Below the pieces are notes generated by a model. The model had not been told where the DNA came from and made no database searches. It saw only the letters and a list, made by a program, of their open reading frames with translations. The translations under genes were made by a program, and so were the position numbers. Below, piece after piece: positions 23,835-55,298 of a stretch of 64,000 nucleotides of DNA. Source of the DNA: an uncultured Gammaproteobacteria bacterium (GTDB lineage: Bacteria; Patescibacteriota; Microgenomatia; Levybacterales; UBA12049); the NCBI GenBank assembly GCA_964512695.1, contig CAZEJU010000006.1, forward strand, positions 2,591 through 66,590. The letters are read 5' to 3'. Within the stretch, counting starts at the first letter, position 1, and each line of letters begins with the position of its first letter.

Positions 23835-23908
23835 TGGAGCGGGTGAAGGGAATCGAACCCTCGTATCAACTTTGGAAAAGTTGTGTTCTGCCATTGAACT
23901 ACACCCGC
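23835..23908 (-). tRNA. tRNA-Gly (anticodon TCC) with encoded CCA
   Basis: Revcomp GCGGGTGTAGTTCAATGGCAGAACACAACTTTTCCAAAGTTG...GGTTCGATTCCCTTCACCCGCTCCA. The anticodon loop is TTTCCAA. Confidence 0.85.
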
Positions 23909-24260
23909 GAGTACTACGACGAAATTTATTATTATCTACCCACGGCCACTATAGATTACTTTAGGGTTATGCGGTAGTTTATATGTTTAGAATTATAGCA
24001 AAGATGGTGCGGATAGGGGAAGACCCATGAAAAACCCGCCTTGGAAACGCATTTGTTTCAACTGGCGGGTTTATATTTTTCACTATGCCAAATCACATCA
24101 AAAATAGATACATCCGGCGTTTGTTTAAAAGTACAATAAAATTGTAATCCTGAGGTATAAGGATTTTAAACTTTTAAACAAAAAACGCCGGATTATGCAT
24201 GTATATTTCTCCCATGGGAGACGTGAGCCGGGAACTAGAAGCCCGGCTCACATACTCACG

Positions 24261-24359
24261 CTAGCGGAGCAGACCTCCCCACGCCGCTAGGAGAATGACG
24301 ATTACCGCCAGGACTGCGGTAATCGTGACGAAGAACTTAGGTGGGATATCTTGCTTCAA
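24261..24359 (-). CDS. 32-aa single-TM peptide (TTG start), translationally coupled downstream of the GC-rich gene; not in track
   Basis: RBS AAAGGAGG directly follows the TAG stop of the upstream gene, then a 6-nt spacer and TTG. It encodes LKQDIPPKFFVTITAVLAVIVILLAAWGGLLR. GC-rich codon usage matches the islet. It is followed by the GAGCCGGG/CCCGGCTC hairpin. Confidence 0.35.
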   Translation of the reverse strand: MKQDIPPKFFVTITAVLAVIVILLAAWGGLLR

Positions 24360-24379
24360 ACCATTCCTCCTTTTGTCTG

Positions 24380-25537
24380 CTACTCGCAGCCAGGGCTAAG
24401 CAGCAATCTGTCCCACCACGAGCAATCCGTGCGTTTAGGTTGCTCGCGAGTAGTGTAGATCTTGTATAGTCGGTAAACCGTATAGGTCACACCGGCTATG
24501 ACAACGATTCCAACTGCAGTTGCCGTAAGCCCTACTGCGTTTGCAGCAACAGCGGCCACTACATAGTGACCGGCATTTGTTACAAGGGTCTTTCCGATGG
24601 GTACCGCGATACGCACGGCCACGTACGTACCCGCGGTCAAACCGACAGCCGTAGCAGCCCCAACCTCAAACTCCTTTCCTTCAACATTCGTACCCAGTTT
24701 TTGGCCTATGTACAGGCCAAGTTCTTCTAGGGTAGAACGGGCATTTTTGTTAGCTGCATCGACGGCTTCTGTGCCACCACCCTGGGATCTGTAGTAGTCC
24801 GCAGGGTCGGGATACCTTTCCACTCCACTGAGTTCCGAGTGTGCGTGAAACCAAGGTAAGCTTCCCGGTCTATCGCACCTCATCCATCCCATTCTCGTTG
24901 CCTGCACAATTACTACCCCATCTCGCTTGTGGGTAGCTGTTATGCAACCAGTAGGAGGTTTGGGACTTTCAGGGGAATATCTGGGTGGCGCAAACCTCTG
25001 ACCACTGATGGAATCACCCATCAGTTTGCCTGTTACGTTATCGTAACAATTTCCTCTGTTCGGGTATTCTCCTTGAGGACACACCTCCCTGCAGTATCCC
25101 GTGCCTGATATGCTGGAACACTGGCGAAGGTGATAGGTATTAGGATCCCATCCCCACACTCCTCCGTTGGGGTGTGGGCTACCCACACTTGGTTGAGTGT
25201 TTGTAGTCGGACCTGTAGCTCGCAACCCACTCGTGGGTGGAGCTATATTTCCGGTACAATCCACACAAGGCCAGTCACGACCTTGGTCGTGTACCCAACT
25301 GTTCGTGCGACCTGTCGGGTCACAGACTACGTGCTGCTGGTACTTACCAGCCCGTGTAGTCTGGCCGTTGGGGACTATTTGACCACCTAGACTACTCGCA
25401 GAGCAGCCAGGCTGTCTTTGAACAGCTGGAGCTGCTTCAGTCAGACGAGGAAGTAATAGCAGGGGTTGAACGGCCAATATGCAGGCGATACATAGACTGA
25501 TAAGCCTAAATCGCCATTGTGTCGACTTGGTGAACAT
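24380..25537 (-). CDS. Cys-rich secreted/membrane-anchored protein of unknown function (GC-rich foreign-looking gene)
   Basis: Probable start is the ATG at 25537 (MFTKSTQWRFRLISLCIACILAV..., signal peptide) with RBS AAAGGAGGG; the track start at 25573 is a GTG. There are about 20 Cys in the mature part. The C-terminus has Ala/Val/Gly-rich TM helices (VGLTATAVGIVVIAGVTYTVYRLY). Confidence 0.5.
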   Translation of the reverse strand: MFTKSTQWRFRLISLCIACILAVQPLLLLPRLTEAAPAVQRQPGCSASSLGGQIVPNGQTTRAGKYQQHVVCDPTGRTNSWVHDQGRDWPCVDCTGNIAPPTSGLRATGPTTNTQPSVGSPHPNGGVWGWDPNTYHLRQCSSISGTGYCREVCPQGEYPNRGNCYDNVTGKLMGDSISGQRFAPPRYSPESPKPPTGCITATHKRDGVVIVQATRMGWMRCDRPGSLPWFHAHSELSGVERYPDPADYYRSQGGGTEAVDAANKNARSTLEELGLYIGQKLGTNVEGKEFEVGAATAVGLTAGTYVAVRIAVPIGKTLVTNAGHYVVAAVAANAVGLTATAVGIVVIAGVTYTVYRLYKIYTTREQPKRTDCSWWDRLLLSPGCE

Positions 25538-25565
25538 CGTCCCTCCTTTAGCGGGAGTATTTTTT

Positions 25566-25619
25566 GAGAACACCGCATATAAAGTGAATTTAGTATTTCA
25601 CCTTATACACGGCGTTCTC
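25566..25619. promoter_or_regulatory. 54-bp imperfect palindrome immediately upstream of the RBS of the GC-rich gene (candidate operator)
   Basis: GAGAACACCGCATATAAAGTGAA tttagtat TTCACCTTATACACGGCGTTCTC; 19 of 23 arm positions are complementary. Confidence 0.4.
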
Positions 25620-25743
25620 TTTTCATGCATGATTTGTCAAAGTTCTAAATACAGAATAATCTTAAGAATATATTATACTACTATGAATTAATAATTTATG
25701 TGATTTGTTATAATGAACGCTGGTTAATTATTTATCTATTTTT

Positions 25744-26697
25744 ATGAGGAAATCGAAAAAGAAACTCTTCCGAAGAGGAACAGAACAAAAATATCCTAAA
25801 ATAAAGCATATATACGCACAAACTAAAAAACCAAGGCGGATTCGGAAAGTAACATCTGCTTCACAACCTCATTTTCGCCCTGTGATTAGTATGCCATTTT
25901 TGTTTTTTTCGCTTCTACTTCTTGCAATAGCATCAGTGACTTTTATCCTTTACCAAATGAGAGTAACATTTGTACTTCCTTCTGTTGAAATACCCAAGAT
26001 CTCTTTTTTTATACCGAAGGTTACTCTTCCTACTATAACTTTCCCAGAAATCTCTACACCTAATGTAGAATTTACATTGCCTGCATTACCTGATTTCAGT
26101 CATAGTATTACTACCATTCGAGATTCTCTTTGGACAGTAGCAAATTTTACTATTCATGGTATACAAAGTATCTGGAATGCGAGCATTACATTTATAGTTC
26201 GCGCGTTACGCTACTTCGATCCTCGTCCGTTATTAATAACTATCTATTACGGAATTTTTACCAGTATTCCATATCTCGTTACCTATTCTATAAAATTTTT
26301 GGGGATGATAGATCCACTGCCCCTTTTTCGTATAACCTTAGAATTTGAAATATCCTTCCTGTATATACTTGGTATGTTACTTATAGAACTTCTACAACTA
26401 ACATATGCCGGACTTATTATACTTTTTGAAATTACCTTGGCAGTGAGTCAAGCGATATTTGTTTTTTTAAACTCAGTATATAATGCATTAAAATCGGTTG
26501 TGTATAGTATATATTTGCCATTAAGCAAATTTTTTAGTGTATTGTATGGTTATACATCCCACGGGATAAAAACAATAGTTGAGTATGTAATGTTTTTTGT
26601 TATGATTGTAATAAATGCTATAGAGCCTTCTATAGAACTATTTAAATTTACCTTTAAGAATGCTGGTGAGTTTATGAAAGCAGTAAGTGGTTCGTAA
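25744..26697 (+). CDS. Hypothetical polytopic membrane protein with a Lys/Arg-rich N-terminus
   Basis: Basic N-terminus (MRKSKKKLFRRGTEQKYPKIKH...KKPRRIRK), then multiple TM helices. No known motif. Confidence 0.4.
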   Translation: MRKSKKKLFRRGTEQKYPKIKHIYAQTKKPRRIRKVTSASQPHFRPVISMPFLFFSLLLLAIASVTFILYQMRVTFVLPSVEIPKISFFIPKVTLPTITFPEISTPNVEFTLPALPDFSHSITTIRDSLWTVANFTIHGIQSIWNASITFIVRALRYFDPRPLLITIYYGIFTSIPYLVTYSIKFLGMIDPLPLFRITLEFEISFLYILGMLLIELLQLTYAGLIILFEITLAVSQAIFVFLNSVYNALKSVVYSIYLPLSKFFSVLYGYTSHGIKTIVEYVMFFVMIVINAIEPSIELFKFTFKNAGEFMKAVSGS

Positions 26698-26712
26698 TTT
26701 AGTGTATGTTTA

Positions 26713-27738
26713 TTACTGTATTTTTTCTATAAAGCTTCTATGAACTTCTGGTAGATCAAGCGATAAAGCTTCCTCTTTCGTTACCCATCTATATTCGGTA
26801 TGCTCCCAACTTAGTTGTACGTCTTCAGTAATAGTTTTGGCTATAAATCCAATCATTACAATAAAGTCTTGGTTTACTTTTGTTATGGGAAAAGTTTGGA
26901 TATGAATAGGACGTACATCAGTTACACGTAATCCTGTTTCTTCCTTCACTTCTCTGTTTATAGCATCAGTAGGGTTTTCTCCAAATTCAATTGCTCCACC
27001 TGGAAAATCCCACCCTCCAGCTCTATCAATTTTATTGGAACGTTTAAGGATAAGAATCTTCCCGTCTGGATTTAGTATCACAGCCTTACCACCAATTTTT
27101 GCAAATACTTCCGGTTCGCTATATCCATCAATAAACGTAGCTTCTGGAAACAGCCGAACTATCCCATGCTTATCCTTACCTGAGAGATAACCATGATATT
27201 GCTCAAGTTTCGGTAATTTAATTCCCATATCTAACGGTGAGAACAGGATATTCGTTTGATATTTTTTGGCGAAAATTCTTTGTTTATACGAACATTTTTC
27301 AATATCTCCCGATATGATAATGAACGGTTTATCTTCTACCTGTTCATAGACTTTTTCTTCAAAAACTTCAATGTTTTTTATTAATATCACACGTTCATTT
27401 ATATCCGGTAGTGACTGGACTGTATACACAAAGCTTTCGTGGTCACCACTTTCAATGAAGATGATTTGTTTTTTATCGGCATCATGTGGAAGTTGAGAGT
27501 TTTTAATGATCAGAGGAGCAGTCATATTTGTAAGTTCTAGAAAGGTATCTCGCGCCATGTGATAAGCACTGAAGAATAGTACTTTTACACTATGACGATA
27601 CATATCAGCGAGAAGATTTACCGTAAAATAAGAAGCACCAGACTTATCAACTCCATGGATAAGGCAGGGTAGATCTGAAAGCCGAATCTGAAGTTTAGAT
27701 TTATCCAGGAGAAGCGTATTCATGAATAGATTATACAT
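26713..27738 (-). CDS. Two-domain protein: N-terminal uncharacterised domain (about 190 aa, degenerate P-loop-like) fused to a C-terminal NUDIX hydrolase
   Basis: C-terminal Nudix box GGAIEFGENPTDAINREVKEETGLRV. The N-terminal domain has GVDKSGASYF (Walker-A-like but non-canonical) and IIFIESGD (Walker-B-like). Confidence 0.55.
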   Translation of the reverse strand: MYNLFMNTLLLDKSKLQIRLSDLPCLIHGVDKSGASYFTVNLLADMYRHSVKVLFFSAYHMARDTFLELTNMTAPLIIKNSQLPHDADKKQIIFIESGDHESFVYTVQSLPDINERVILIKNIEVFEEKVYEQVEDKPFIIISGDIEKCSYKQRIFAKKYQTNILFSPLDMGIKLPKLEQYHGYLSGKDKHGIVRLFPEATFIDGYSEPEVFAKIGGKAVILNPDGKILILKRSNKIDRAGGWDFPGGAIEFGENPTDAINREVKEETGLRVTDVRPIHIQTFPITKVNQDFIVMIGFIAKTITEDVQLSWEHTEYRWVTKEEALSLDLPEVHRSFIEKIQ

Positions 27739-37713: not shown

Positions 37714-38994
37714 TTATAAGTTGAAAGGGGAGGTAAAGAGTCTAATCAGCCTGGCAAACAATGATCTATTTTTGTTTTCAGGGTTAGTACCATCATTTTC
37801 TAACGTTATTGTTTGCAATTTTTGAGTATTGTCAATTACAACAGTTTTTTTATTATAACCTGGTGCTTTAACCTCTATAGTTTGTGAAGAGAGAAGGTAG
37901 GGGATTTGAAATGTACCGTTCTTGGCTGGATTATAGGTTTTTTTATTCACTGTAATAACAGCATCTGTAATTGGGAAATTTTCATTATCCACTATTTTTC
38001 CTTTTATTATCTGATGAGAGTAAAAGTTTTTAAGAACTTCTGCACCTTTACGAGGAACCCCATTTGCTGCCCATAGAGCTGTACTACCTCCGACATTCAC
38101 CCAATAATTTATACCAATTACTTCCGTTGTCGTTGAAAGCTTAGCAAATGTTTCTGCTAGCCAGATTGCTTGTTGTTCTTCGGTCATGTTTCCATGAATA
38201 TCTGGTATAGGCGCTCCCATTTCTCCTAATACGACTTTTCCAGCTCCTCGTTTCGCGTATTCTTTAATATCCTCAATTAGTTTGTCTGGTGAACCGACAT
38301 AATGGTCTATAGTAATAACACCATCTAAAGCTTTTACCATAGCTTTATCCATAACTAAACGAGCAACATCTCCATTCATAGAGTAATAATTTGCTATAAC
38401 ATCTTTCTTAATCTGTTTAAATGCTGCTTTTGTAATTTTATATTCGTTAATTAAGAACTGCCTGAACTTATAAACATCGCCATATCTAGGATCTCCTGGA
38501 CCACCGTTTTCACATTCTGGACATGAAGTAAAGATATCCCCATCTTCAAAGAGTTCTGGATTATTTAGAATAAATTGCTCGATTTTTTGTGTATGTTCTG
38601 CTTCTGTGACTTTGCCATACCCAAACCAACCCTCCCAACCAGACAAATTACCTCGAAACCAAACGCTTAAGCCATATTTTCGTGCAGTCGATACCCAACG
38701 TTTCATAAATGGAATAAATTCTTCATCATAAGGTGTCGAAATTGAAACGTGAGACGCTCCTAAATATGCAATCTGGCTTACTTGTTTTTCAATAACAGCA
38801 TCAAATGATGTATCTGAAAGTTTCTCACGAGCTACATCTCTTGAGTATTTCATGGTATCTACTGCACGGACTGGAATAGGATGTACTGCATCAGACATAG
38901 TGGCATATACTTGAACATAAAAAATTATGCTTATTACAGCAAATAAGATAAAGATTACTATTTGTCTTTTCATAAAATATTTCATACGTATCAT
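37714..38994 (-). CDS. Putative membrane-anchored glycoside hydrolase (TIM-barrel, clan GH-A-like); last gene of the polysaccharide operon
   Basis: N-terminal TM. Candidate nucleophile region VVLGEMGAP and upstream FTSCPECENGG (candidate acid/base). The family is not assignable by eye. Confidence 0.3.
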   Translation of the reverse strand: MIRMKYFMKRQIVIFILFAVISIIFYVQVYATMSDAVHPIPVRAVDTMKYSRDVAREKLSDTSFDAVIEKQVSQIAYLGASHVSISTPYDEEFIPFMKRWVSTARKYGLSVWFRGNLSGWEGWFGYGKVTEAEHTQKIEQFILNNPELFEDGDIFTSCPECENGGPGDPRYGDVYKFRQFLINEYKITKAAFKQIKKDVIANYYSMNGDVARLVMDKAMVKALDGVITIDHYVGSPDKLIEDIKEYAKRGAGKVVLGEMGAPIPDIHGNMTEEQQAIWLAETFAKLSTTTEVIGINYWVNVGGSTALWAANGVPRKGAEVLKNFYSHQIIKGKIVDNENFPITDAVITVNKKTYNPAKNGTFQIPYLLSSQTIEVKAPGYNKKTVVIDNTQKLQTITLENDGTNPENKNRSLFARLIRLFTSPFNL

Positions 38995-40610
38995 TATAAT
39001 CTACCGAGGGTTGGTTTTGTGACGAGGTCTTTTACATAAGCATTTTTTAACTGATATATGTCTGCAAATGGATAGGATTCTACCAACTCATATTTTTCTA
39101 AATGACCTGACTGTTTAACAAGTTTAAATGTCATATCATTGTTGTCATTGGTACGCATAATGATCCAACGCGCCCATACATCTGGTCGAGCTATAGCTTT
39201 ATCCCAGTACTTACCAGTTCCTTCATGAATGAATCTAGCCATAGGAAGCCCAGAAGAGAAAATAATAGCATCATGAGAAGCAGCAGATATTAAAACAAAA
39301 CCTTCTTTTTTCTCAGCATTCTCTCGTAACCAACCACTTACCTCTGTAACGTTTTTTCCTGAAGCTCCATATCTGGCATCATCAAGTGTTACTGCATCAT
39401 TACTTATATGAGAGATAATAACGACAAAAGATAAAAGTCCCAGGAGAACAGGTCGAATCGCAGTTGCTCTATGGAAAAGATATCCCACAAATATCGCGAT
39501 TGATGGCATCATTAAGATTCCATACCGAATATTAAACCATGAATTACCTGATAAACCTTGAATGAAAAGTACTGAATGTCCTAAGAATAAGGCAATAACA
39601 TTAAACATAAAAGGAGAAAGCAGTGCTAACGCTGCGTATCGTAAGCGCATAGGAATTTTCTTATCTAACCAGAGAAGACCTCCCCCTATAACACCTAAGA
39701 GCATAAGGAAAGTCCCAGAATTATAATTAACAGCATACGTATAATACTGCAATGACAATACCAAGTTACTTTTTGTTATTAAGTTTCCTGCAGATTCTAA
39801 TTGTTTCTGTTGAGCGCGTGCTGAATAAGGTCCAAATGCGAAATATAAAGGATCTTTAAAGATTAGCAAGTTCCAGACAAACCATAAAAGTATTCCAAAG
39901 CTTGCCATAGTACAGAAAAAGATAGCAACACCTTTTGCAGTTTTAAAGCCGTACTTTCTAAGGACAAATAAGACAACCATGCCAAAACTGAATAAGAAAA
40001 GAAACCACCCATCATAACGGATAAGAGTTGAAAGCATAATCCAAAAAGAAGCCATAATAAGAGAGAGAATTTTTTCATCTTTAAACCACATTAATAGCTC
40101 ATATACACCGATAGTCATAGTAGCCATCAGAAGTAATTCAGTCATAGCTGTAGATTGAAGGTAAAGTACGTTTAAGTTAGTAGCAAAAACTAACATACCC
40201 ACTGTACTTCCTAAAAGCCCTACACCTAATCTCCGTAAAAACAGAAAGATAATAACACTTACTGCTAAATAAGAAGACATAGATTGAATTGCCCCGCTTA
40301 GACCAGAATGCCACATGAAGTTACTCCAGATAGTTGGGACCATAAGTAAATGGGGAAGAGGTAACCATACACTTCCAAGTTGCGCAAATCCAGGTTTTAA
40401 ACCCTCTACAACGCGTCTCCCGATATTAAGATGGGATCGAGCATCGTTATACGCAAGCCCCATGCCATTTAAGTAGAAAACCAGAAAAGACGCAACTGAG
40501 AAAATAGATAGTACCCAAAATAACATAAACAACAGTCTCTTTTCTTCAGCATTAGGATAGTATCGTAATTTTAGAACAGGTAAAAATATGCGTATATTTG
40601 GAAATTTCAT
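38994..40610 (-). CDS. Polytopic membrane protein, GT-C-like putative glycosyltransferase (ArnT/PMT-like)
   Basis: About 13 TM helices. The first extracytoplasmic loop carries an acidic motif, AYNDARSHLNIGRRV. Start and stop overlap the neighbouring genes. Confidence 0.3.
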   Translation of the reverse strand: MKFPNIRIFLPVLKLRYYPNAEEKRLLFMLFWVLSIFSVASFLVFYLNGMGLAYNDARSHLNIGRRVVEGLKPGFAQLGSVWLPLPHLLMVPTIWSNFMWHSGLSGAIQSMSSYLAVSVIIFLFLRRLGVGLLGSTVGMLVFATNLNVLYLQSTAMTELLLMATMTIGVYELLMWFKDEKILSLIMASFWIMLSTLIRYDGWFLFLFSFGMVVLFVLRKYGFKTAKGVAIFFCTMASFGILLWFVWNLLIFKDPLYFAFGPYSARAQQKQLESAGNLITKSNLVLSLQYYTYAVNYNSGTFLMLLGVIGGGLLWLDKKIPMRLRYAALALLSPFMFNVIALFLGHSVLFIQGLSGNSWFNIRYGILMMPSIAIFVGYLFHRATAIRPVLLGLLSFVVIISHISNDAVTLDDARYGASGKNVTEVSGWLRENAEKKEGFVLISAASHDAIIFSSGLPMARFIHEGTGKYWDKAIARPDVWARWIIMRTNDNNDMTFKLVKQSGHLEKYELVESYPFADIYQLKNAYVKDLVTKPTLGRL

Positions 40611-40615
40611 AGTTT

Positions 40616-42142
40616 TTATGTACGTCTCCTTTCATAAAGAACATGGAATGCATACATTGTTATACTCGTCAAAATAATGCACGCAGCTATTAGAAATACG
40701 TAAGAATATGCAGACCAGCTGTTTTTTAAGAAAAGATTATAAATTAGCGAGCTGACCATATTATCGTCTACAAGCTGTAAATTATATTCATATGTATATG
40801 GAATAGGCTTCATAAGACTCATTGCTTCTTGTTTTGGAGGGATTGCAGCAGTTGTTACGACACCGAGAACATTTACAAAAACACTATACACAAAAGAAAC
40901 AAAGAAAAATAATGTAAAAATTACATTTTTATAGAATCTTTGAATAGCAATACTGGTCATAACTGCTAGTATGGCTGCAGACGGAATAAGATATCGTGGC
41001 CCAAATGCCCACCCCCCCCATGGATCACCGAACATCGAATAAAGAATAATATTTACACCCACTAATGATAAGAGTACGTTTATAAAAGTTACGTTTCGTT
41101 TTTTATTATATAAGATGATAAATCCCAGAATTCCAAAAAGTATTACCGGACTATAATATAACCAGGCTCTCTCGTTGCTTAAGAGTAAAACATTCATACC
41201 TTGTACCTGCAGCCGCGATTGGAAAGGAAATAAAGATTTTTTATCTTTCGCTCCACTTGCTATAGTTGAGGTCGAAGTTTGCTTTTTCCCAAATACCTGT
41301 TGGTAATCAGTACGTCCAATTGTTTGCCCAGTCTTTAAAAGAGAACCTGTAGTGGTTTTATTGTACCAAGCAAAAAGCGACATAAAAGGTAATACTCCAA
41401 TAACTATTGTGAGAATGGAAGTTCTACATGTTATGAGGAATGACTGTCTTACTTTTTCCAGTGAAAAGTGTTTTATGACTATGTAGGAAGCAATTGGAAA
41501 TAAAAGTATTATATTAGGAATGTCAACAAGAATAGCGAATCCCAGAATACATCCAAACAAGACATTTTTAACTATAGTTCTTTCTCCGATGGCATTTCGC
41601 AAGGCTAGAAGAATAAGCAATGTGGTTACATGATGTTGCGTGTATGTATTAGCGTAAGTTAATGCATTTGTTGCAAAAAGAAAAATAAGACCTCCAATAT
41701 ATGCTGTATATTTATTTGCTCCCAGTGACCTACTAATTGACGTTATAAGAAACATATTAGCTAAAGCTATCAAGGTTATCGAAAAAAAGGTAAAGAGCTG
41801 CGGCATAGAGAGAAATCTGCCAAAAAAATAAAAAGGAATACCTATAAGCGATACACCCGGTGTGAAAATAGTGTAAAATCTTTTTTTATAATAAACCAAA
41901 TCCGGTGAGGCGAATTTTGCTTGCTGGTTCGTAAAGGATAAAGAATGATTTTCCACTATAGCTTCGGTGAGCGCGTATCGGGAGGTACTGTTAGAAGCTT
42001 CATACGGTCCACCAACGTTCGTCGCTTTTTCTTTCTGGTAGGCAATAGGATTCCCTTTATCACCTTTTACAGTAAGTAAAAGAATAAGCAGTGGAATTAT
42101 AACCATACAGATTTTTGTTAAGAATTGGAATAGTCTTTTCAT
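40616..42142 (-). CDS. Polytopic membrane protein, GT-C-like putative glycosyltransferase
   Basis: About 12 TM helices with an N-terminal loop RYALTEAIVENHSL. Operon context. Confidence 0.3.
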   Translation of the reverse strand: MKRLFQFLTKICMVIIPLLILLLTVKGDKGNPIAYQKEKATNVGGPYEASNSTSRYALTEAIVENHSLSFTNQQAKFASPDLVYYKKRFYTIFTPGVSLIGIPFYFFGRFLSMPQLFTFFSITLIALANMFLITSISRSLGANKYTAYIGGLIFLFATNALTYANTYTQHHVTTLLILLALRNAIGERTIVKNVLFGCILGFAILVDIPNIILLFPIASYIVIKHFSLEKVRQSFLITCRTSILTIVIGVLPFMSLFAWYNKTTTGSLLKTGQTIGRTDYQQVFGKKQTSTSTIASGAKDKKSLFPFQSRLQVQGMNVLLLSNERAWLYYSPVILFGILGFIILYNKKRNVTFINVLLSLVGVNIILYSMFGDPWGGWAFGPRYLIPSAAILAVMTSIAIQRFYKNVIFTLFFFVSFVYSVFVNVLGVVTTAAIPPKQEAMSLMKPIPYTYEYNLQLVDDNMVSSLIYNLFLKNSWSAYSYVFLIAACIILTSITMYAFHVLYERRRT

Positions 42143-42154
42143 ATCTTATAATAA

Positions 42155-44359
42155 TTAACTGTGAACCTTTGTATTATATATGATAGGCCTATAATTTTCA
42201 ACTAAACGTGCAGCGTATACTGGTAAATAGCTACCAAATGTAGCTAAAATAGATCTAGATCTATTATAAATAGTTAAAACTTCTCTTTTAACATCGTCTG
42301 TTAGACCGACTAAATATCTTTCACTGCGGGCATACTGCTCATGTCTTAAAGACACCATTGCAAGAAGCTGAATTGTGTAATAGATTGATAGACGGATAAA
42401 GGCCTCTTTATCACGATTCGTGAGTTTTCTTTCTTTAATAAGCACTTTAATGCCTTCTATACCTATTTTTCCATACCAAAATCTGGCAATATAAGCCAAG
42501 TCGGTATTTTTTTCCGCTAAAACCATAATTTCAGAATCTAGGATACTTATGTTTTTTTTATCGATCAGTATATTTTTTTCATGTAAATCACGATGTGAGA
42601 CAACATACTCTTTTTTTATAAAAAGCGATGAAAAAATTAATTTATAGAATTCAATACTGTTAGTGAATATTGCGTGCGCCAGCGAAGGTTTTTTTATAAA
42701 AGCTAAAAGTGCATATAAAGGAAATGTATATGCCATACTATTTGACTTTCTTACCGCTAATATTTTTTTATCATCATCACTTAATTTCTTGTTTAAAATT
42801 GTAAGTCCTTTTAAACAGGCTGATAAAACTGATATCTGCGTTTTGGTGGGTTGTGTTGTAAGCATCTTACCTTCTCTATACTCCGATAAAAGTGAAAGTT
42901 CATTTGCTGATGTATGAAAGCCGATTACTTTAGGAAAATTGATTGTATACTGCTGAACTCGAATTTTATGTATTTTTTTTAACATTGATAATATTCGCCA
43001 TACGTTATATGTTTGTATGTACTCTAATGTTTTTCCTTGATAGGGTATTTGCCGAATGATAACTTTTTCTTTAGCATCATTCATATATAATCTGGTTCTA
43101 TGCACTAAATTTGATGAGGGAGATTTTAGTTCTTTTAAAAAACTAAATCCACTTACTGGAGAATAGGTAACTTTTTTATGGAGTTTTTTATAAAAGAAGG
43201 ATAACAACTTACCGTTTAGCGAATCAAGTAAGGCAAAATTGTCATTTACATTATCTTTTTTGTTATTTTCAACAATTCCGTGAAAGAATGTTAAGTATTG
43301 TTCTGTAATGCTATCCCAAGAATACCTTTTAGCAACTTTCTTATATGCCGCAATATTTGCTTTTAGTTTTCCTTTCTCTGCGGTTTTTAACAATATTTTT
43401 GCATACTCATTAAAGTTAAAAGGAACAGCTTTTTCTATGCCTGTATTTCTCGTCCACTCAAGGCCTTTTATATTAAAACTTACCACAGGAACTCCGCTTG
43501 CTAACGCTTCGAGTGTAAATAATGAAAAACCTTCATATCGTGATGGTAAAGCTACAACAGCAGCATGTTTAAGAAGCGAACGCTTCTTATTATCATATGC
43601 AGGGCCTACTAAAGAGACTTTCCCTTCTAGACCTAACTGATGGATCATATCTTCTATACGTTTTTTATCTGGTCCATGTCCTGCTATAACTAGCGGATAC
43701 ATAGTCTTACTGGAAATTTTTTTGTACGCATGAAGTAATATATCTATACCTTTCTGGCTTATGTCTAATCTTCCTAAAAATAATATGTACTTTCTCTTTG
43801 CAGGTTGATTTGTAAAATATTCATCGCCTACTCCTTCATGAATTACTGTAGTTTTAGTATGAGAGTTTAGTTCAGTTATTTTTTTAGCAGCAGAGTTTGT
43901 GCTTGCAATAAAATATTTGTAGAGTCGTGACCCATATTTCTCAACTTTATCGAAGGGTAAATGGTAAATATTGGCAAATCTATTTGCTTCAAAAGATGTA
44001 GATTTTCCAACTACTGGAATTCTTGTAAAGAGAGGAGAACATAGTGTCGAGATGGGTGCAGTAAAACACTCGATGATAATGTCAGCCTGAAGTCTTCTGA
44101 CAATAAAGGGCAGCGAAAAGATATACGCAATGTTATTCAATCTGATATTTTTTGTTCCAACTCCTATATGTCTATAATAAATTCCTTTCTCAAACCTATC
44201 TTTATATCCTGGATATCGAGAACTGATAACGGTGACTTTATGTCCTTTCTTTATCATTCGCGATGCCACTTCATATGTAGAACGTGCTTGCCCAGCACCT
44301 AAAAAAGGATTTTTAATATCATCAAAGTCAAGAAAAATTATATGTAATGATTCTTTCAT
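42155..44359 (-). CDS. Bifunctional GT4 glycosyltransferase / APH-ChoK-like kinase fusion protein
   Basis: The N-terminal half is GT4: the C-terminal subdomain has EGFSLFTLEALASGVPVV (EX7E). The C-terminal half has a kinase-like catalytic loop VVSHRDLHEKNILI (HxDxxxxN) and a DSE (DFG-like) motif. Confidence 0.55.
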   Translation of the reverse strand: MKESLHIIFLDFDDIKNPFLGAGQARSTYEVASRMIKKGHKVTVISSRYPGYKDRFEKGIYYRHIGVGTKNIRLNNIAYIFSLPFIVRRLQADIIIECFTAPISTLCSPLFTRIPVVGKSTSFEANRFANIYHLPFDKVEKYGSRLYKYFIASTNSAAKKITELNSHTKTTVIHEGVGDEYFTNQPAKRKYILFLGRLDISQKGIDILLHAYKKISSKTMYPLVIAGHGPDKKRIEDMIHQLGLEGKVSLVGPAYDNKKRSLLKHAAVVALPSRYEGFSLFTLEALASGVPVVSFNIKGLEWTRNTGIEKAVPFNFNEYAKILLKTAEKGKLKANIAAYKKVAKRYSWDSITEQYLTFFHGIVENNKKDNVNDNFALLDSLNGKLLSFFYKKLHKKVTYSPVSGFSFLKELKSPSSNLVHRTRLYMNDAKEKVIIRQIPYQGKTLEYIQTYNVWRILSMLKKIHKIRVQQYTINFPKVIGFHTSANELSLLSEYREGKMLTTQPTKTQISVLSACLKGLTILNKKLSDDDKKILAVRKSNSMAYTFPLYALLAFIKKPSLAHAIFTNSIEFYKLIFSSLFIKKEYVVSHRDLHEKNILIDKKNISILDSEIMVLAEKNTDLAYIARFWYGKIGIEGIKVLIKERKLTNRDKEAFIRLSIYYTIQLLAMVSLRHEQYARSERYLVGLTDDVKREVLTIYNRSRSILATFGSYLPVYAARLVENYRPIIYNTKVHS

Positions 44360-47300
44360 ATATTTATAGTTTCCTCTTGAGCTAGAAATATATCTCCGTA
44401 TCGTGGGAAATCCGCCTGTTTCGGTAGTACACCTTGTATAATCGAATCAAGAGCTTCTGCACTTTTCTCCCATGTAAATCTTTTAGACCAAACAGTAGAC
44501 TTAGTGGACAACTTCTGTAATAGTTTTTTATCTTCTATGGTTACCAGCATTGCAGTACAGAACGCTTCAACGTTTCCACACTCAATAAGAAGACCCGTTT
44601 CCTTATCGACAACTGAATCTTTTAGTCCATTAACGCGCGATGCAATAACCGGCGTTCCGCTAGAATTAGCTTCGATAACTGTTATACCCCATCCTTCAAC
44701 TTGTGAAGGCTGTATCATAACCCAACTTTCCGCTAGTAATTGTGCTTTAAGGTCGTTAGATACTTTTCCGTAAAATATAACATTTCTTTCTATTTTTAGC
44801 TGTTGTGCTAATTGTTGTAAAGAATGAAGACTTTCACCTTCACCAACAATTCTAAGTACCGCAGTTTTATGGGTACGCAGAACTTTCGCAAATGCTTTAA
44901 TTGCAATATCAATATTTTTATGTGGTTTTAAACGACCTAAATAAATGAATGATGGATACCTCGTTTTTTTTCTCGGTTTAAATACTGTTGCATCAATTCC
45001 GTTGTAAACAATTTCAATATTTTCTGGGTGGGAAAAACCCAGATCTATAATAGACTTTTTAGAAGATTCAGAAACTGTTATCACAGGTTTATTTCTATAT
45101 GCATACGGCATAAGTTTCGATTCCATGATTGCTACAAGCTTCGCAACAGGATAGATGAGATATTTCCTAAACACTTCTTGATGAACATGATGAATTATTA
45201 AGAAAATAGGTTTACGAACGTAGAAGGGGGAAAAAAATGGAATGCCGTTCTCACAGTCTATGACAACATCCGTCTTTTTTCTTAAAAAGAAAACATAGTA
45301 TATAACTGCCCAAATATATACAGTATAAGCTCCTCCTCGTCGGATAATACGAACTCCATCAATAATTTCGTTTCTAGGAGACTTCTTATCATTTCCACAA
45401 AATACTGTTACATCTTTTCCTTGAGTCACCCACCTTTTTGCGATTTCATGTATATATACTTCAGCGCCTCCTGACCATTTATGTCTTGTATCTCGCCAGT
45501 TTAAGAATAGAATAGCCTGTTTCTTATCAGTATTATCTTCGGTAACAATCTGATTTTCTTTACTAATAAGTGCTCCTAAAGCTTTTTCAAATGCAATAAC
45601 AGTTTTGTTATTTCTGTGGAGAAATAACATAACAAGTAAATGAAATTGCCCAAGTGCTGCCATCGTATATACAAAATCTAAAAGAGTGGCATGTCTGAAT
45701 GTAATCAGTGTTATTTGTACGAATGATAACAACACCACAGTAGCGGGGAATGTATATATATTTTTAGCCAAATAATAAGAGACAATAGTTTTAGAGATGG
45801 TAAAACAGAACATACCGAAAGAGAATGCAAATACATAGGGTAGTATATAGGATGCTTTTTCGCCAAATAATAGGGGTAACGAAATGCTTCCAAGAATCCC
45901 GAAAGCAATAAATCCAATCCCGCTCACTACGCCAGTACTAATCACTGAGTAATAAAAGAGAAGCTCTGTATTTTTATTTTTTCCTTCTAACTTACTAACA
46001 AATGGAATTACAAATTGAGTTGTTAGACCACCTAAGAAGAAAATCATCTTTCCACATAAAGAAAGTAATGCATATTTTCCTGCTTCTTCCGGGGCTAAGA
46101 AATGATTCGCAAGTAAGATATCAACACTCATGAACGTAACATTGGCAATACTTGCTAATATAGAAGCTGAAAAAAACTTACTTGGAAATGCTAAAGCTTC
46201 GGTGGAAACAGTACTTTTTATAAGTTTTATAAAACGAGGTATAAAAAATGCCGAAGAAACATATGCTAATACGAATGCTAAAGGTATAGCTATATATACA
46301 TAATTCTCATATCCAGAATAAATTAAAATTACACTTAAAATTACTTTATAGAAAGGTTCGATAAGAATTGCGCCAGCTAAGTTAATAAATAGTAACTTAC
46401 CAGATAGATAGCCTCTATCCACTGAAAACCTAAAACCAACGAGCCAAACTAAAGAAAAGAACACAAATGGAAGTATGGACTGTGTTTTAAAAAGCGACTG
46501 TAATGTCGGAGATATTATTAACCAAACTGTTGCACTTACAAGCGAAACTAGAACAACTTGATTTCTCATGAAGCCCCAGAAGGCAGCTGCAGTTTGTTTG
46601 TTATATCGACTTTCAGACAGTGCAGTTTTATGACTTATAGCTGCTTGTAAAGAAGAAAAGGGAACACTTGCAAGATATGCTAAGCTTGCGACAAGACTTA
46701 TAATACTAATTGTCTCTAATGAAATAGTAGGTATTCTATAAATTATAATGTTATAAACTAAATTCATTATATGTGCGCCTGTAACTGCCATCATTAAGAT
46801 TGAGCTTGTAATAATGTTTCTTTTATATGGCGTAAGCATTTTTATTACATTAGAAAGTATGTTAAATTGGAGAGAAAAAGATTTTCTTACAGGCTTAACT
46901 ATTGGTGTCTCGACTTCTATCTGAATAGCAGGAATAATCGCTTTCTTTTTCTTTTGTAGATGCAATCCGTGAATTGTTTTCTCCCAGTAATGAGGTTTAA
47001 AGATAAGCTGGTATAATGCAACCCATCCTGCAATACTTACCATTAACCAATATATAGGTATAAAAAGAGCTGAGTAAATTAAGTCCCACTGTTTTCTCTT
47101 CGCACATCCGATCATGTAGTAATATAAAAAGAGGAAATTACCAAATACGAGAGAGATTGCGCCCAGGTAAAAAGCAGGAGCTATATAAACGAGTTCTAAA
47201 GTTGGTCCGACAATAGAATATAAAGCAAAATAGGAAATAGTAGCAAGCCACAAGAAAGGATTGAGGAAAATAAACGTTAATTTACTTCCGATTGTCAATT

Positions 47301-54062: not shown

Positions 54063-55298
54063 TTAGTTTGCTTGATGGCCAGTTAGCCATTCAAGAAGAT
54101 CTCCTAGATCGAATGTGAAATCCAAATCTAAGTCGAGATCATCACCATCCATGTCTTCGGCTGCGCCGTAGACATTCATGTTACCAGAATTAGTAGCTTT
54201 AACTCCTGCTTTCGCATTACCTGTCTCGACAGAAGGATCACTTCCATCCCAAGAGGTATTGTCGTCTGCATCGTTATCTCCGGTATCAAGATCGCCATCG
54301 ACATCGTTATCGAAGTCTGAGTCGTTATCTTGATCTACATCGAGATCTTCGTCGGTATCGACTGTGATTTCGCTGTCTGATTCTGTTCCATTACCTGAGA
54401 TTTTAGCTTCTAAATCTTCGAGGCAACCGCATGAATCAACATCTGCCCAGTTAAAGTTAGCCATGTTGTCAAGGATAACTGTTAAGTAAGCATAACCTGT
54501 GTCGACAGAAACTTCGCCACCTGTGTTGTCATCTGCATCGTTGTCTCCTGTTTCAGCATCGACATCGACATCATTGTCGAAGTCTGCATCATTATCTTGA
54601 TCTAAGTCAATATCATTATCGAAGTCGAGATCGACATCGTTGTCTGAATTTGATCCGTTACCAAGAATCATTGCGCTGACTGTACCACCTTCACCATTAC
54701 CTCCTCCAATCTTTGCAGAGTTGTAGTTAGCTTGGTTTGTGATACCTACTTTTACTGTACTGTCGCCTGTTTTAACTGAGACATCGCCACCGGTGTTATC
54801 ATCGGCGTCATTATCTCCAGTTTCAGCATCAACATCAACATCGTTATCGACATCTGCGTCGTTGTCTTGATCGACATCAACGTCATTATCGAAATCGAGC
54901 GTTGCATTGTTATCTGAGCCTGTTCCGTTTCCTGAAATTAAGACTTCAGAATCGTTTTGGCAACAAGATTCGACATCTGCCCAGTTGGAATTGAGTTTGT
55001 TCTCAATATCAACTAAAACAGTAGAGTCACCAGTTTTGACTTTTACGTCTCCACCAGTGTTGTCACTCGCACTGTTGTTACCTGTGTCAGCAGTGATGTT
55101 GATATCATTATCGACATCCGCATCATTATTCTGTGTTACATTAACATTGTGTGAGTAACTGACATCTGCATCGTTATCACTATTAGATCCGTTTCCAGAA
55201 ATTGTGATTGTTGCTGCTGATGCCATAGGTGCTAATGCGTTAAGTAAGACTGCTCCGGTCGCAATAGCTGTTGTTAATCTTTTTGAAAAATTTGTCAT
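54063..55298 (-). CDS. Secreted poly-acidic tandem-repeat protein (repeat family; Asp-rich DxD arrays, candidate Ca-binding)
   Basis: RBS AAGGGGGTGA. Signal peptide with an ASA site. Modules ISGNGSNSDNDADV...DNDADVDNDVDVDAETGDNDADDNTGGDVSVKTGDSTVKV are bracketed by CC/CGC motifs (VESCCQNDSEV, DSCGCLEDLEAKISGNGTESDSE). Confidence 0.55.
   Translation of the reverse strand: MTNFSKRLTTAIATGAVLLNALAPMASAATITISGNGSNSDNDADVSYSHNVNVTQNNDADVDNDINITADTGNNSASDNTGGDVKVKTGDSTVLVDIENKLNSNWADVESCCQNDSEVLISGNGTGSDNNATLDFDNDVDVDQDNDADVDNDVDVDAETGDNDADDNTGGDVSVKTGDSTVKVGITNQANYNSAKIGGGNGEGGTVSAMILGNGSNSDNDVDLDFDNDIDLDQDNDADFDNDVDVDAETGDNDADDNTGGEVSVDTGYAYLTVILDNMANFNWADVDSCGCLEDLEAKISGNGTESDSEITVDTDEDLDVDQDNDSDFDNDVDGDLDTGDNDADDNTSWDGSDPSVETGNAKAGVKATNSGNMNVYGAAEDMDGDDLDLDLDFTFDLGDLLEWLTGHQAN

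Follow-up and report, generated by a model that had tools for sequence, protein, structure and literature searches.

A GC-rich operon at a conserved tRNA-Gly locus of AT-rich Levyibacteriota-like genomes, possibly held by selection for a structured transcript

How does a strongly GC-rich block come to lie, and to stay, in an AT-rich bacterial genome? The question is raised by a single block in the window, i.e., the whole 64-kb stretch of DNA analyzed here. Nucleotides 24220-25537 contain 53% GC against a background of ~33%, and this is the sole such block in the window. The GC fraction is 0.52-0.56 in 300-nt windows from 24200 to 25549, as compared with 0.27-0.41 on either side; at 1-kb resolution, 24001-25000 reaches 0.50, and all other kilobases, the adjoining one excepted, lie between 0.29 and 0.43. 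The spacer on the tRNA side (23909-24219) has a GC fraction of 0.36, and the intergenic region upstream of the large open reading frame (25538-25743) of 0.29. The large ORF has GC1/2/3 values of 0.574/0.545/0.473, versus 0.464/0.375/0.257 (sd 0.048/0.057/0.032) for the 38 other window ORFs of at least 200 aa, which places its GC3 at z≈6.7. Its four-fold sites are enriched in both G and C, and the encoded protein has a GARP/FYMINK ratio of 2.0-2.5 (GARP-rich, as in a high-GC proteome) versus 0.70±0.21. The compositional anomaly described in the initial annotation is therefore real, with windowed GC and codon usage foreign-looking at all three codon positions.

The same slot is occupied in two other genomes (L001 and L003), one of which is a Candidatus Levyibacteriota MAG. 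The shared order consists of a membrane-protein gene, the GC-rich gene, a small ORF (where present), hairpins, the tRNA-Gly promoter, and tRNA-Gly; the window neighbors are genes for an AI-2E transporter, a methyltransferase, the membrane protein, and a NUDIX protein. The unit was found in all three genomes sharing the locus (the check that the initial annotation had proposed at tRNA-Gly), and no additional relatives were recovered. A profile search with the neighbor protein returned L003 as its sole match; L004/P0008 was uninformative, as the contig ends inside the neighbor gene. Flanking proteins have identities of 40% and 33-35% (membrane protein), 79% (AI-2E transporter), and 61% (methyltransferase), and the GC-rich protein has identities of 58% and 34% at the same divergences. 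The GC-rich gene tree, ((window,L001),L003), is congruent with the flanks and with the tRNA; the tRNA gene matches that of L001 over its first 49 nt and has 68% identity to that of L003.

Beyond this locus, the family has no known relatives, as the initial annotation had supposed. Searches with phmmer and hmmsearch of 5.8 billion and 1.84 billion proteins, using single sequences and a three-sequence profile, returned the three orthologs only, and no homolog was found elsewhere among ~15 billion proteins. A 1868-aa Cna-B-type repeat protein (P0003, E = 8e-11) was rejected because its score adds up from 12 weak matches of its repeats to a Gly/Ala/Thr-rich stretch. The large protein has no match in Pfam, NCBIfam, PHROG, PADLOC, PDB sequences, or a PDB profile search, and two curated-library hits (‘Opacity’, E 0.053; Sec61beta, 0.019) were dismissed as noise. 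Similarly, a protein-profile scan of genomes, metagenomes, and viral contigs found nothing, and literature searches found nothing relevant on horizontal gene transfer in Levybacteria or on Cys-rich proteins of the CPR. The features of the locus are collected in Table 1.

Table 1. Features of the GC-rich operon and its surroundings (window coordinates).
Feature	Coordinates	Strand	Remarks
Extended -10 box TGTTATAAT for the divergent membrane-protein gene	25706..25714	+	putative function, from consensus
-10-like box TAGTAGTATAAT upstream of the operon	25672..25683	-	12/12 identical in window, L001, and L003; putative promoter
TTGACAAATCATGCATGA, a TTGACA hexamer then the 10-nt palindrome TCATGCATGA	25623..25640	-	near-invariant in three genomes
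Leader hairpin, 23-bp perfect stem, 8-nt loop	25566..25619	-	folding computed
Shine-Dalgarno AAAGGAGG of the large ORF	25542..25549	-	invariant in three genomes
385-aa ORF	25537..24380	-	preceded by Shine-Dalgarno AAAGGAGG
Shine-Dalgarno AAGGAGG of the small ORF	24366..24372	-	6 nt before TTG; from sequence
32-aa ORF MKQDIPPKFFVTITAVLAVIVILLAAWGGLLR, single hydrophobic span	24261..24359	-	TTG start
GC-rich hairpin GTGAGCCGGG-N9-CCCGGCTCAC, end of the GC-rich block	24223..24251	-	kept in L003
CATGCAT box (24195-24201) then long hairpin ATCCGGCG...CGCCGGAT, variable interior	24112..24201	-	three-genome comparison
Terminator-like hairpin ACCCGCC...GGCGGG then TTTTT	24030..24070	-	kept in three genomes
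Extended -10 box TGCTATAAT, putative tRNA-Gly promoter	23992..24000	-	CCATCTT upstream
tRNA-Gly (TCC), downstream neighbor	23835..23908	-	ARAGORN, Rfam

Upstream, the operon faces a divergent gene encoding the 317-aa membrane protein (25744-26697). The putative -10 box of that gene, TGnTATAAT on the opposite strand of the upstream alignment, is kept in the three genomes and marks the edge of a shared control region. On the operon side, a simple sigma-70 scan misses the TAGTAGTATAAT box because it lacks a good -35, and the TTGACAAATCATGCATGA element is possibly the -35 of a second promoter and/or an operator. With two candidate promoters, the leader hairpin would lie at +1 or ~50 nt downstream. 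TCATGCATR occurs only four times in the 64 kb and is therefore not a genome-wide motif; the CATGCAT box was rejected as a regulon motif, with no enrichment elsewhere in the window. The leader folds with a minimum free energy (MFE) of -39.9 kcal/mol (z = -7.9, 200 dinucleotide shuffles; MFE z-scores here and below are computed predictions), and leader hairpins of -40 to -54 kcal/mol are present in all three genomes. The base of the stem, AGAAyGCCG/CGGCrTTCT, is shared with L001 and L003, with covarying pairs C-G/T-G/T-A and G-T/G-C/G-C across the genomes, and the hairpin interior in L001 and L003 is unalignable, AT-rich, and 34-130 nt long. In the window, AAAGGAGG is partly paired within a small CTCC...GGAG hairpin.

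The large ORF is clearly protein-coding: nucleotide identity between the window and L001 by codon position is 0.67/0.73/0.33, and every indel in the coding alignment is a multiple of three. The encoded protein has a predicted signal peptide at ~1-36 (TEA|AP), Sec-type rather than a double-glycine leader by inspection, followed by a Cys-rich ectodomain, a predicted helix at ~245-280, a Gly/Ala/Val/Thr-rich hydrophobic region at 291-357, a basic stretch, and a C-terminal C-x11-C tail (C372, C384). The Cys-rich, signal-peptide-bearing protein of the initial annotation is thus recovered, with 14 cysteines and not ~20, two of them within the signal peptide and eight invariant across the three orthologs. 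The C-terminal hydrophobic segments that it had also noted are present in the window and L001 proteins (strong at 325-357, weaker at 291-314) and absent from the L003 ortholog. Protein identity is 56-58% to the ortholog P0002 and 28-34% to P0006/L003, for which hhalign supports orthology (95%). From these features, Sec export, disulfide bonds, and membrane association of the products are predicted, and the protein is a possible adhesin or surface protein. An AlphaFold2 model computed from the three-sequence alignment was unusable (mean pLDDT 37.5, pTM 0.24), which leaves protein function to guesswork.

The coupled small hydrophobic peptide of the initial annotation is borne out as a 32-aa ORF behind its own Shine-Dalgarno. 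Its L003 counterpart, with GAAAGGAGA ahead of its TTG, agrees with it in length, frame, start, and stop, and has 62% amino-acid identity; the last 13 aa are identical, and all four differences in those codons are synonymous. Two RNA hairpins lie inside the small ORF, including a perfect 11-bp hairpin at 24298-24326, in which L003 has a compensatory A-T to G-C change. In L001, the small ORF is cleanly deleted, the large gene is intact, and an equivalent hairpin and T-run immediately follow it.

Downstream, the transcript trailer (24025-24263) folds at -87.9 kcal/mol (z = -8.1). The arms of its long hairpin (24112-24125 and 24180-24193) are accompanied by an inner arm pair; the second CATGCAT box and the stem base are kept in the three genomes, the hairpin interior is not, and CATGCATNNNCCGGCG occurs in L003 too. 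The terminator-like hairpin, whose inner GAAAC...GTTTC helix is likewise kept in the three genomes, is the probable transcript end; its loop is too long for a simple terminator scan to call it. The putative tRNA promoter, within CCATCTTTGsTATAAT, is kept in the three genomes, and with a promoter of its own tRNA-Gly would be a separate unit. The AT-rich spacer between block and tRNA thus contains conserved hairpins, a terminator, and a tRNA promoter, and the GC-rich block begins ~310 nt from the tRNA, not ~100 bp as first described.

Strong predicted pairing extends into the coding sequence itself. Against shuffles that keep the protein, codon usage, and dinucleotides, the CDS has a folding excess of z = -5.31 in the window and of -5.83 and -4.75 in the other orthologs; z is -4.5 to -4.8 when shuffling is confined to gene thirds. 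The 23 control genes (AT-rich window genes, E. coli genes of 51-54% GC, and phage D29 genes of 63-67% GC) range from +1.2 to -3.3 (mean -0.65, sd 1.48, minimum -3.26). One other window gene, 54063-55298, has a z of -7.2, likely from internal repeats, so the MFE statistic can be inflated by sequence architecture; the GC-rich gene has no internal repeats. Excess structure is spread along the whole CDS, except for the first 150 nt, and its hairpins are local and at non-homologous positions between orthologs. Perfect hairpins (stem of at least 7, loop of 3-8) are significantly enriched in the window (five versus 1.5) and in L003 (six versus 1.0) but number zero in L001, so the excess does not consist only of short perfect hairpins. 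In each of the three orthologs, the sense strand folds more stably than the antisense; the antisense is also over-structured (z -2.7 to -4.6), and a DNA-level cause is possible.

GC-richness has persisted over the same divergence. Four-fold sites are saturated (third-position identity of 0.28/0.23/0.35 versus 0.25/0.23/0.26 expected by chance), and GC3 is 0.47/0.60/0.63 in the three orthologs versus 0.25-0.29 in the flanks. The home-genome GC implied by codon positions 1 and 3 is similar (50/47, 63/55, and 57/56), which is not the pattern of a half-decayed gene. Passive decay was modeled with HKY calibrated on the flanks: with kappa 3 and a start at 100% GC3 at the split, the predicted GC3 is ~0.36 (maximum 0.46), versus an observed mean of 0.52. 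On the L001 branch, GC-to-AT changes number 25 versus 35 AT-to-GC (11 versus 19 at positions 1+2). The window branch has a net GC loss (68 versus 40, p = 0.009), and retention is therefore not uniform. Parsimony polarization of third positions was rejected, with ratios equal to the saturation expectation. With three orthologs, these evolutionary statistics are thin.

The reading to which we give an even chance is that of a clade-restricted, vertically inherited operon whose GC-richness is held by selection for a structured transcript. The operon would be an old resident of a few Levyibacteriota-like bacteria (CPR/Patescibacteria), encoding a Sec-exported protein with disulfides drawn from its eight invariant cysteines and, in two of the three genomes, a 32-aa membrane peptide with a single span, translationally coupled to it. 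Its transcript would be heavily base-paired, with a long perfect leader hairpin, a strong Shine-Dalgarno, three trailer hairpins, and a CDS packed with local hairpins of 8-14 bp except around the start codon. Since hairpins lie at differing positions and synonymous sites are saturated, structure would have to be continually renewed by selection. Most likely, selection for pairing would make the message of a needed envelope or secreted protein long-lived and resistant to RNase; the same selection would keep G+C 20-25 points above the genome and push the protein toward Gly/Ala/Arg/Pro. That structure would lead to mRNA stability, and mRNA stability to GC retention, is a chain that we infer. In its most general form, i.e., a gene-specific compositional homeostasis that holds operon GC 20-25 points above the genomic equilibrium via transcript pairing, with hairpins replaced and amino acids dragged along, the idea is put forward tentatively, at somewhat less than an even chance.

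Retention by selection has to be weighed above all against a single ancient import, in which the clade ancestor received the operon from a donor of very high GC, followed by passive and incomplete drift toward AT, with the structure incidental. Under the amelioration framework of Lawrence and Ochman, horizontally acquired genes of atypical composition drift toward that of the host. The operon resembles such genes in its off-host GC and codon usage at all codon positions, its GARP-rich amino-acid usage, and its narrow phyletic distribution, the family being confined to three genomes; the net GC loss on the window branch fits as well. The HKY decay model is compatible with the data if kappa is 1, i.e., no transition bias, and the ancestor had a GC3 of ~100%. 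Saturation taken by itself as proof of maintenance was weakened by this explicit test, in which passive decay is only strained. However, with kappa of 3 or more, the best case predicts a GC3 of no more than 0.46, versus 0.57-0.61 in L001 and L003; the L001 branch is without a GC-to-AT excess; and the home GC read from position 1 agrees with that from position 3. Unlike ameliorating genes, the operon has kept to one locus while divergence reached saturation, mobility genes are absent, and no donor could be identified: the high-GC donor proposed in the initial annotation found no support, as no homolog was recovered from any high-GC organism, phage, or plasmid among the ~15 billion proteins. An import would also leave unexplained a z of about -5 for structure in three orthologs after synonymous saturation, a strong sign that synonymous sites are under selection. 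The evidence now favors active GC retention, and an ancient import, although unlikely, keeps a real share of the probability.

The initial annotation had ventured a toxin- or bacteriocin-like module. A large protein acting as a secreted pore-forming toxin or bacteriocin, with the small membrane peptide conferring immunity, would account for the signal peptide, the Cys-rich domain, the Gly/Ala/Val-rich hydrophobic C-terminal region, and the small hydrophobic ORF directly downstream with its own Shine-Dalgarno, an arrangement akin to that of toxin-immunity pairs. What weakens this idea is that L001 has retained the large gene without the small one: a toxin gene under purifying selection whose immunity ORF is gone would be self-intoxicating, and the small ORF is dispensable there. 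Moreover, the hydrophobic region is missing in L003, no processing or export genes and no match to a toxin, immunity, or defense family were found, and the gene occupies a fixed housekeeping locus in single copy, not a variable site. We regard this reading as improbable.

GC-biased gene conversion at a recombination hot spot, for an often-exchanged surface protein, is quite improbable in its turn. The GC-rich protein evolves fast compared with the AI-2E transporter (34% versus 79%) and is probably surface-exposed, and both G and C are raised at four-fold sites, as this process would have it. However, the required rise in GC3, from 0.26 to 0.6, far exceeds reported bacterial effects of gene conversion; the GC step matches the coding sequences exactly, whereas the co-inherited UTRs stay AT-rich; and no excess of secondary structure is predicted by it.

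The block might instead be, or double as, a large structured non-coding RNA, with the ORF incidental or secondary, which we consider very improbable. OLE, GOLLD, and ROOL are large GC-rich structured non-coding RNAs of AT-rich bacteria, often located beside tRNAs, and a GC-rich, strongly folding island adjoining a tRNA in an AT-rich genome resembles them. Unlike these RNAs, the block is protein-coding, with the codon-position identities and in-frame indels given above and an open frame, Shine-Dalgarno, and start kept in three genomes. Its helices lie at non-homologous positions, so there is no conserved fold, and Rfam searches at the gathering score and with E up to 1 returned only tRNAs and hairpin-shaped noise (miRNA precursor models).

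A recent, strain-specific islet at tRNA-Gly, or repeated independent imports to the same site, is highly improbable. What speaks for it is a sharp GC step near a tRNA gene, as in tRNA-associated integrative islands, and a weak AT-rich inverted repeat flanking the block (35 nt, 74%). The repeat, however, overlaps the neighbor's promoter and is not conserved in L001. In contrast to such islands, the block is found on the 5′ rather than the 3′ side of the tRNA, behind the tRNA promoter and with terminators in between, and the available relatives do not differ in carrying it: three diverged genomes share its place, leader, ribosome-binding site, terminators, and congruent branching. No integrase or transposase domain was found among the ORFs scanned around the block, no att-like or tRNA-derived direct repeats occur at it, and there was no phage or plasmid match. 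The recent tRNA-linked islet of the initial annotation is thus not upheld. Along the same lines, an integron gene cassette was rejected for want of an integrase and of attC cores (RYYYAAC/GTTRRRY), the hairpin bases reading AGAAyGCCG/CGGCrTTCT and TCCGGCG/CGCCGGA by inspection. A chimeric assembly or contaminant contig, for which nothing more than the composition step itself speaks, has a next to negligible probability because two independent Logan contigs from other read sets reproduce the junctions, L002 (SRR8893623) with 100% identity to 23879-25748 across both and L005 (SRR11524805) with 99.79% identity to 24948-26850 across the upstream one, and the same AT/GC/AT arrangement is seen in L001 and L003.

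Selection for a structured transcript has precedents in part. To our knowledge, no natural bacterial gene has been described in which a structured CDS is kept against a strong AT bias. The ompA, aprE, and cryIIIA (STAB-SD) messages are stabilized by 5′ stem-loops or 3′ hairpins. A 5′-UTR stem-loop also stabilizes the mRNA of the secreted protein VacA in H. pylori (PMC4843948). The operon resembles vacA-type mRNAs in a leader hairpin with conserved pairing rather than sequence, a strong Shine-Dalgarno close by, 3′-end hairpins, and a secreted product (predicted here), and differs in pairing that runs through the whole 1.2-kb CDS and in a G+C rise of 20-25 points. In designed mRNAs in eukaryotic cells, a structured CDS prolongs functional mRNA half-life (Mauger et al. 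2019, PMC6883848); the likeness here is that the CDS is strongly structured while its start region stays open, a pattern tied in that system to high protein output.

Genes of atypical GC are routinely taken to be recent horizontal arrivals, and here a gene looks foreign in all compositional tests yet has long been resident. If selection keeps its GC, compositional island calls could be wrong in a specific and testable way, and RNA-level selection would have overcome a strong genomic AT bias and reshaped amino-acid content. The operon would then be a natural example of the principle, used in mRNA design, that a structured CDS makes for a long-lived mRNA. The large protein itself represents a new, predicted exported family; its CPR phylum is poorly known, and proteins on the surface of these bacteria are prime candidates for a role in host interaction.

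The compositionally distinct block singled out in the initial annotation is confirmed both by local G+C content and by the deviation of GC3, the G+C content at third codon positions. Scanned in 300-nt windows, G+C climbs from 0.37 to 0.52–0.56 across ~24200–25550 and then drops to 0.30, and at 1-kb resolution the block is the sole portion of the 64-kb window at 0.50 G+C. The large ORF has GC1/2/3 values of 0.574/0.545/0.473, versus means of 0.464/0.375/0.257 in the other window ORFs of at least 200 aa (n = 38), which places its GC3 ~6.7 standard deviations from the mean of those 38. High G+C is restricted to the two coding sequences, the large and the small ORF, and the co-inherited untranslated stretches are host-like in composition. 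The GC-rich part lies upstream (5′) of tRNA-Gly and starts ~310 nt from it, farther than the ~100 first proposed. Assembly error is excluded: the junctions are reproduced by Logan contigs from SRR8893623 (100% identity, spanning both junctions) and SRR11524805 (99.79% identity with four SNPs, spanning the upstream junction).

When 5.8 billion and 1.84 billion proteins were searched, a single relative of the large protein came up, P0002 (56–58% identity); its 2.5-kb contig, L001, is the same locus from a different organism. L001 carries, in this order, the divergent membrane-protein gene, a 60% GC gene in 32% GC flanks, the conserved hairpins, the TTGCTATAAT box, and a tRNA-Gly whose first 49 nt are the same as the window's. 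One further locus, L003, was recovered from the GTDB genome set with the fast-evolving neighbor membrane protein as bait, in a MAG titled Candidatus Levyibacteriota bacterium; its order is AI-2E transporter, methyltransferase, tRNA-Gly, small ORF, a 378-aa gene (58–66% GC), and the divergent membrane-protein gene. The 378-aa product is a distant ortholog of the large protein (hhalign probability 95%), with which it shares the signal peptide, a VPPGxTT...VCDP motif, eight aligned cysteines, and a C-terminal PKRxxCxWxDxL...C tail. The neighbor membrane protein is 40% identical between the window and L001 and 33–35% identical to L003, while the window and L003 share 79% identity in the AI-2E transporter, 61% in the methyltransferase, and 68% in the tRNA-Gly gene. 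The GC-rich protein, at 58% and 34% identity, branches as ((window,L001),L003), the same as the flanks. The genes around the block are cell-envelope housekeeping genes with no integrases or transposases among them; no tRNA-derived direct repeats occur at the locus, and no matches turned up in phages, plasmids, or viral contigs. From synteny in three diverged genomes, together with the lack of integrase, direct repeats, and phage or plasmid matches, we infer that the window comes from a Levyibacteriota-like CPR bacterium and that the GC-rich operon has long resided there.

The divergent neighbor gene (25744–26697, plus strand) encodes a lineage-restricted membrane protein, with only 3–4 database sequences, whose N-terminus is nearly invariant (MRKxKKKLFRRGTxQKY) and which also contains a series of LPxI/PxIS repeats; the gene and the GC-rich operon have a common control region, and a functional link between them is possible. 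Between this gene and a tRNA-Pro/tRNA-Leu pair, the window has a 341-aa gene (26713–27738, minus strand) with a C-terminal NUDIX domain fused to a ~210-aa N-terminal region of no family. At the corresponding position in L003 (6958–7190), the NUDIX gene is absent and tRNA-Pro/tRNA-Leu lie directly next, in the opposite orientation. Elsewhere in the window, a run of large minus-strand genes (37714–49113) encodes a 1585-aa protein combining GT2, GT2-like, and GT4/GT1 glycosyltransferase domains, followed by a 734-aa GT4 protein and three 426–538-aa proteins with no Pfam family; the run probably represents a cluster for envelope glycans or glycoproteins.

Aligning the intergenic regions of the window, L001, and L003 (n = 3) revealed a conserved transcription unit, whose elements are collected in the table below.

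Elements of the GC-rich transcription unit and the adjacent tRNA-Gly in the window
Feature	Position	Strand	Remarks
Large ORF, 385 aa	25537..24380	−	behind AAAGGAGG
Small ORF, 32 aa, TTG start	24359..24261	−	behind AAGGAGG; 20 nt past the large ORF stop
tRNA-Gly(TCC)	23835–23908	−	same strand as the block
Invariant box TAGTAGTATAAT	upstream of large ORF		three-genome alignment
TTGACAAATCATGCATGA, containing palindrome TCATGCATGA	upstream of large ORF		three-genome alignment
Long leader hairpin	upstream, ahead of AAAGGAGG		three-genome alignment
GC-rich hairpin	24223–24251		downstream of coding part; three-genome alignment
Second CATGCAT box, then hairpin with variable interior	24112–24201		downstream; three-genome alignment
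Terminator-like hairpin and T-run	24030–24070		downstream; three-genome alignment
Extended −10 box TGCTATAAT, the tRNA's own	downstream		three-genome alignment

The base of the leader hairpin, AGAAyGCCG/CGGCrTTCT, is maintained by covarying pairs around an unalignable interior of 34–130 nt at 24–33% GC. Predicted leader folding energies are −40 to −54 kcal/mol in the three genomes; in the window, the z score of the native sequence against shuffled versions is −7.9 for the leader and a predicted −8.1 for the trailer. The Shine-Dalgarno of the large ORF is able to pair with an upstream CTCC (CTCCCGCTAAAGGAG; 25543–25557, minus strand), with weaker counterparts predicted in L001 and L003, and this pairing is a possible translational control element. 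Between the tRNA-Gly promoter and the tRNA, L001 (2400–2497) and L003 (4033–4160, minus strand) have a 100–170-nt leader with conserved blocks GTTCACGC..., CGTCG, and AACCTTA; it has no Rfam match and could be a co-transcribed small RNA or processing element. The window's tRNA-Gly leader (23909–23991, minus strand) is shorter and different.

The large ORF is truly protein-coding: nucleotide identity to L001 by codon position is 0.67/0.73/0.33 and every indel is a multiple of three. Coding status is also probable for the small ORF: its length, frame, start, and stop equal those in L003, amino-acid identity is 62%, and the last 13 residues are unchanged, their codons carrying four nucleotide differences, all synonymous; the ORF is nonetheless cleanly deleted in L001. 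Judged from its sequence and from what is generally known of Sec signal peptides, the large protein would be exported, with an n-region containing Arg9/Arg11, a hydrophobic core at 12–29, and a TEA|AP cleavage site. It has 14 cysteines, fewer than the ~20 initially counted, and the mature form would be stabilized by up to four conserved disulfides. A hydrophobic region at 291–357 may tether it in the window and L001, and the 32-aa peptide is a putative non-essential membrane partner. The predicted structure of the large protein is unusable (pLDDT 37.5).

The close strain of SRR11524805 differs from the window at four sites in 1.9 kb, with A/T in the window and G in the strain at all four. Two of these, 25516 and 25455, lie within the signal peptide of the large protein (Trp8 to Arg and Leu28 to Ser) and are polarized by L001 as AT-to-GC changes on the strain's side; the Trp8 change creates an Arg-Arg pair, as found in L003. 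Within the small ORF, a perfect 11-bp hairpin, ACGATTACCGC / GCGGTAATCGT (24298–24326, minus strand), is maintained in L003 by a compensatory A-T to G-C change that alters two residues (Thr to Ala, Val to Ala), and a second stem, CTAGCGG...CCGCTAG with loop GGGGAGG, lies at the ORF 3′ end. Constraint on the small ORF may act at the peptide and the RNA level alike.

Synonymous sites between the orthologs are essentially saturated: third-position identity at four-fold sites under identical amino acids is 0.28, 0.23, and 0.35, versus 0.25, 0.23, and 0.26 by chance. Ortholog GC3 is nevertheless 0.47, 0.60, and 0.63, compared with 0.25–0.29 in flanking genes of the same genomes, and the genome GC implied by positions 1 and 3 is concordant in the three orthologs (50/47, 63/55, and 57/56), which is not the expectation if third positions decay first. 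Passive decay was modeled under HKY with the host four-fold equilibrium, a window–L003 path length taken from the flanks, and the most generous start, 100% GC3 exactly at the split. The predicted GC3 is 0.46 (upper bound 0.57) at kappa 1, 0.36 (0.46) at kappa 3, and 0.28 (0.37) at kappa 6, against observed four-fold values of 0.42, 0.57, and 0.61; passive decay is strained but still conceivable. With L003 as the outgroup, the window branch has a net GC loss (68 vs. 40, p = 0.009), whereas no such loss is seen along the branch to L001 (25 vs. 35, and 11 vs. 19 at positions 1+2). For parsimony polarization the third positions are too saturated, and the comparisons rest on n = 3 sequences.

Transcript structure was assessed by permuting third bases only within groups of codons alike in amino acid, in their first two bases, and in the base that follows, a scheme that leaves the protein, codon usage, and dinucleotide counts unchanged; the folding energies are predicted throughout. 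The native coding sequences are far more stable than their shuffles (z = −5.31 in the window, −5.83 in L001, and −4.75 in L003), and shuffles confined to thirds of the gene give z of −4.5 to −4.8. Controls range from +1.1 to −2.5 for AT-rich window genes (n = 7), +1.2 to −3.2 for E. coli genes at 51–54% GC (n = 8), and +0.9 to −3.3 for mycobacteriophage D29 genes at 63–67% GC (n = 8), with an overall mean of −0.65 (sd 1.48). Per nucleotide, folding stability in the three orthologs exceeds that of genes whose GC is the same or higher: −0.46 kcal/mol/nt for L001 and L003 at 60% GC vs. −0.43 to −0.45 for D29, and −0.41 for the window gene at 53% GC vs. −0.33 to −0.37 for E. coli. The structure consists of many local 8–14 bp hairpins (median pair span ~26 nt) at positions that differ among the orthologs, and the excess covers the entire gene apart from 150 nt at its beginning, around the start codon. 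The GC-rich gene has no internal repeats able to inflate z. Folding stability is higher on the sense than on the antisense strand in all three orthologs, as is the native-minus-shuffle excess (58/55/49 vs. 29/47/37 kcal/mol), which favors selection on RNA even though the antisense excess is above zero.

A separate 411-aa ORF (54063–55298, minus strand), second in GC among window ORFs (0.42), encodes a signal peptide and four ~95-aa Asp/Asn/Val-rich repeats (…DNDADVDNDxDVDAETGDNDADDNTGGDVSVKTGDST…) with no Pfam match. Its excess mRNA structure is above that of the GC-rich gene (z = −7.2, dinucleotide-preserving synonymous shuffle); the candidate explanation is that this is probably due to self-complementary repeated GAY/GTC/ATC codons.

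Since synonymous sites are saturated and the excess is kept in each ortholog, the pairing must be constantly restored by selection acting in the current hosts. Together, the leader stem-loop, strong Shine-Dalgarno, GC-rich paired body, and 3′ hairpins would make a long-lived message, a reading by analogy that we consider evenly balanced. A 5′-UTR stem-loop raises the half-life of H. pylori vacA mRNA (PMC4843948), and functional half-life is extended when the coding sequence is structured (PMC6883848). An ancient high-GC import followed by passive decay is consistent with the base composition and with the window branch's net GC loss, but it accounts for neither the structure signal nor the L001 branch, fits poorly under realistic transition bias, and seems unlikely to us. 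GC-biased gene conversion raises local GC, yet predicts neither the pairing nor the sharp limitation to coding sequence. Two observations make a toxin/immunity pair less likely: L001 has lost the small ORF, and L003 lacks the hydrophobic region. Of the laterally acquired tRNA islet first proposed, the foreign-looking composition stands; a recent tRNA-linked insertion, or repeated imports, is contradicted by synteny, the block occupying the same slot in L001 and L003, and by missing island hallmarks. A pure ncRNA is excluded by the coding signature of the large ORF.

The GC-rich unit can be likened to compositional islands and structure-stabilized mRNAs. It is a conserved operon with purifying selection on its coding sequence, persistent high G+C limited to coding parts, and excess pairing in leader, body, and trailer. 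Selection for pairing favors G and C and would oppose genomic AT drift; the gene may have been imported long ago or may have originated inside the clade, and selection on structure is compatible with either. In these bacteria, the unit is a conserved orphan operon for an exported protein, with a foreign-looking composition of long standing, and independent evidence suggests a link between this composition and selection for heavy transcript structure.
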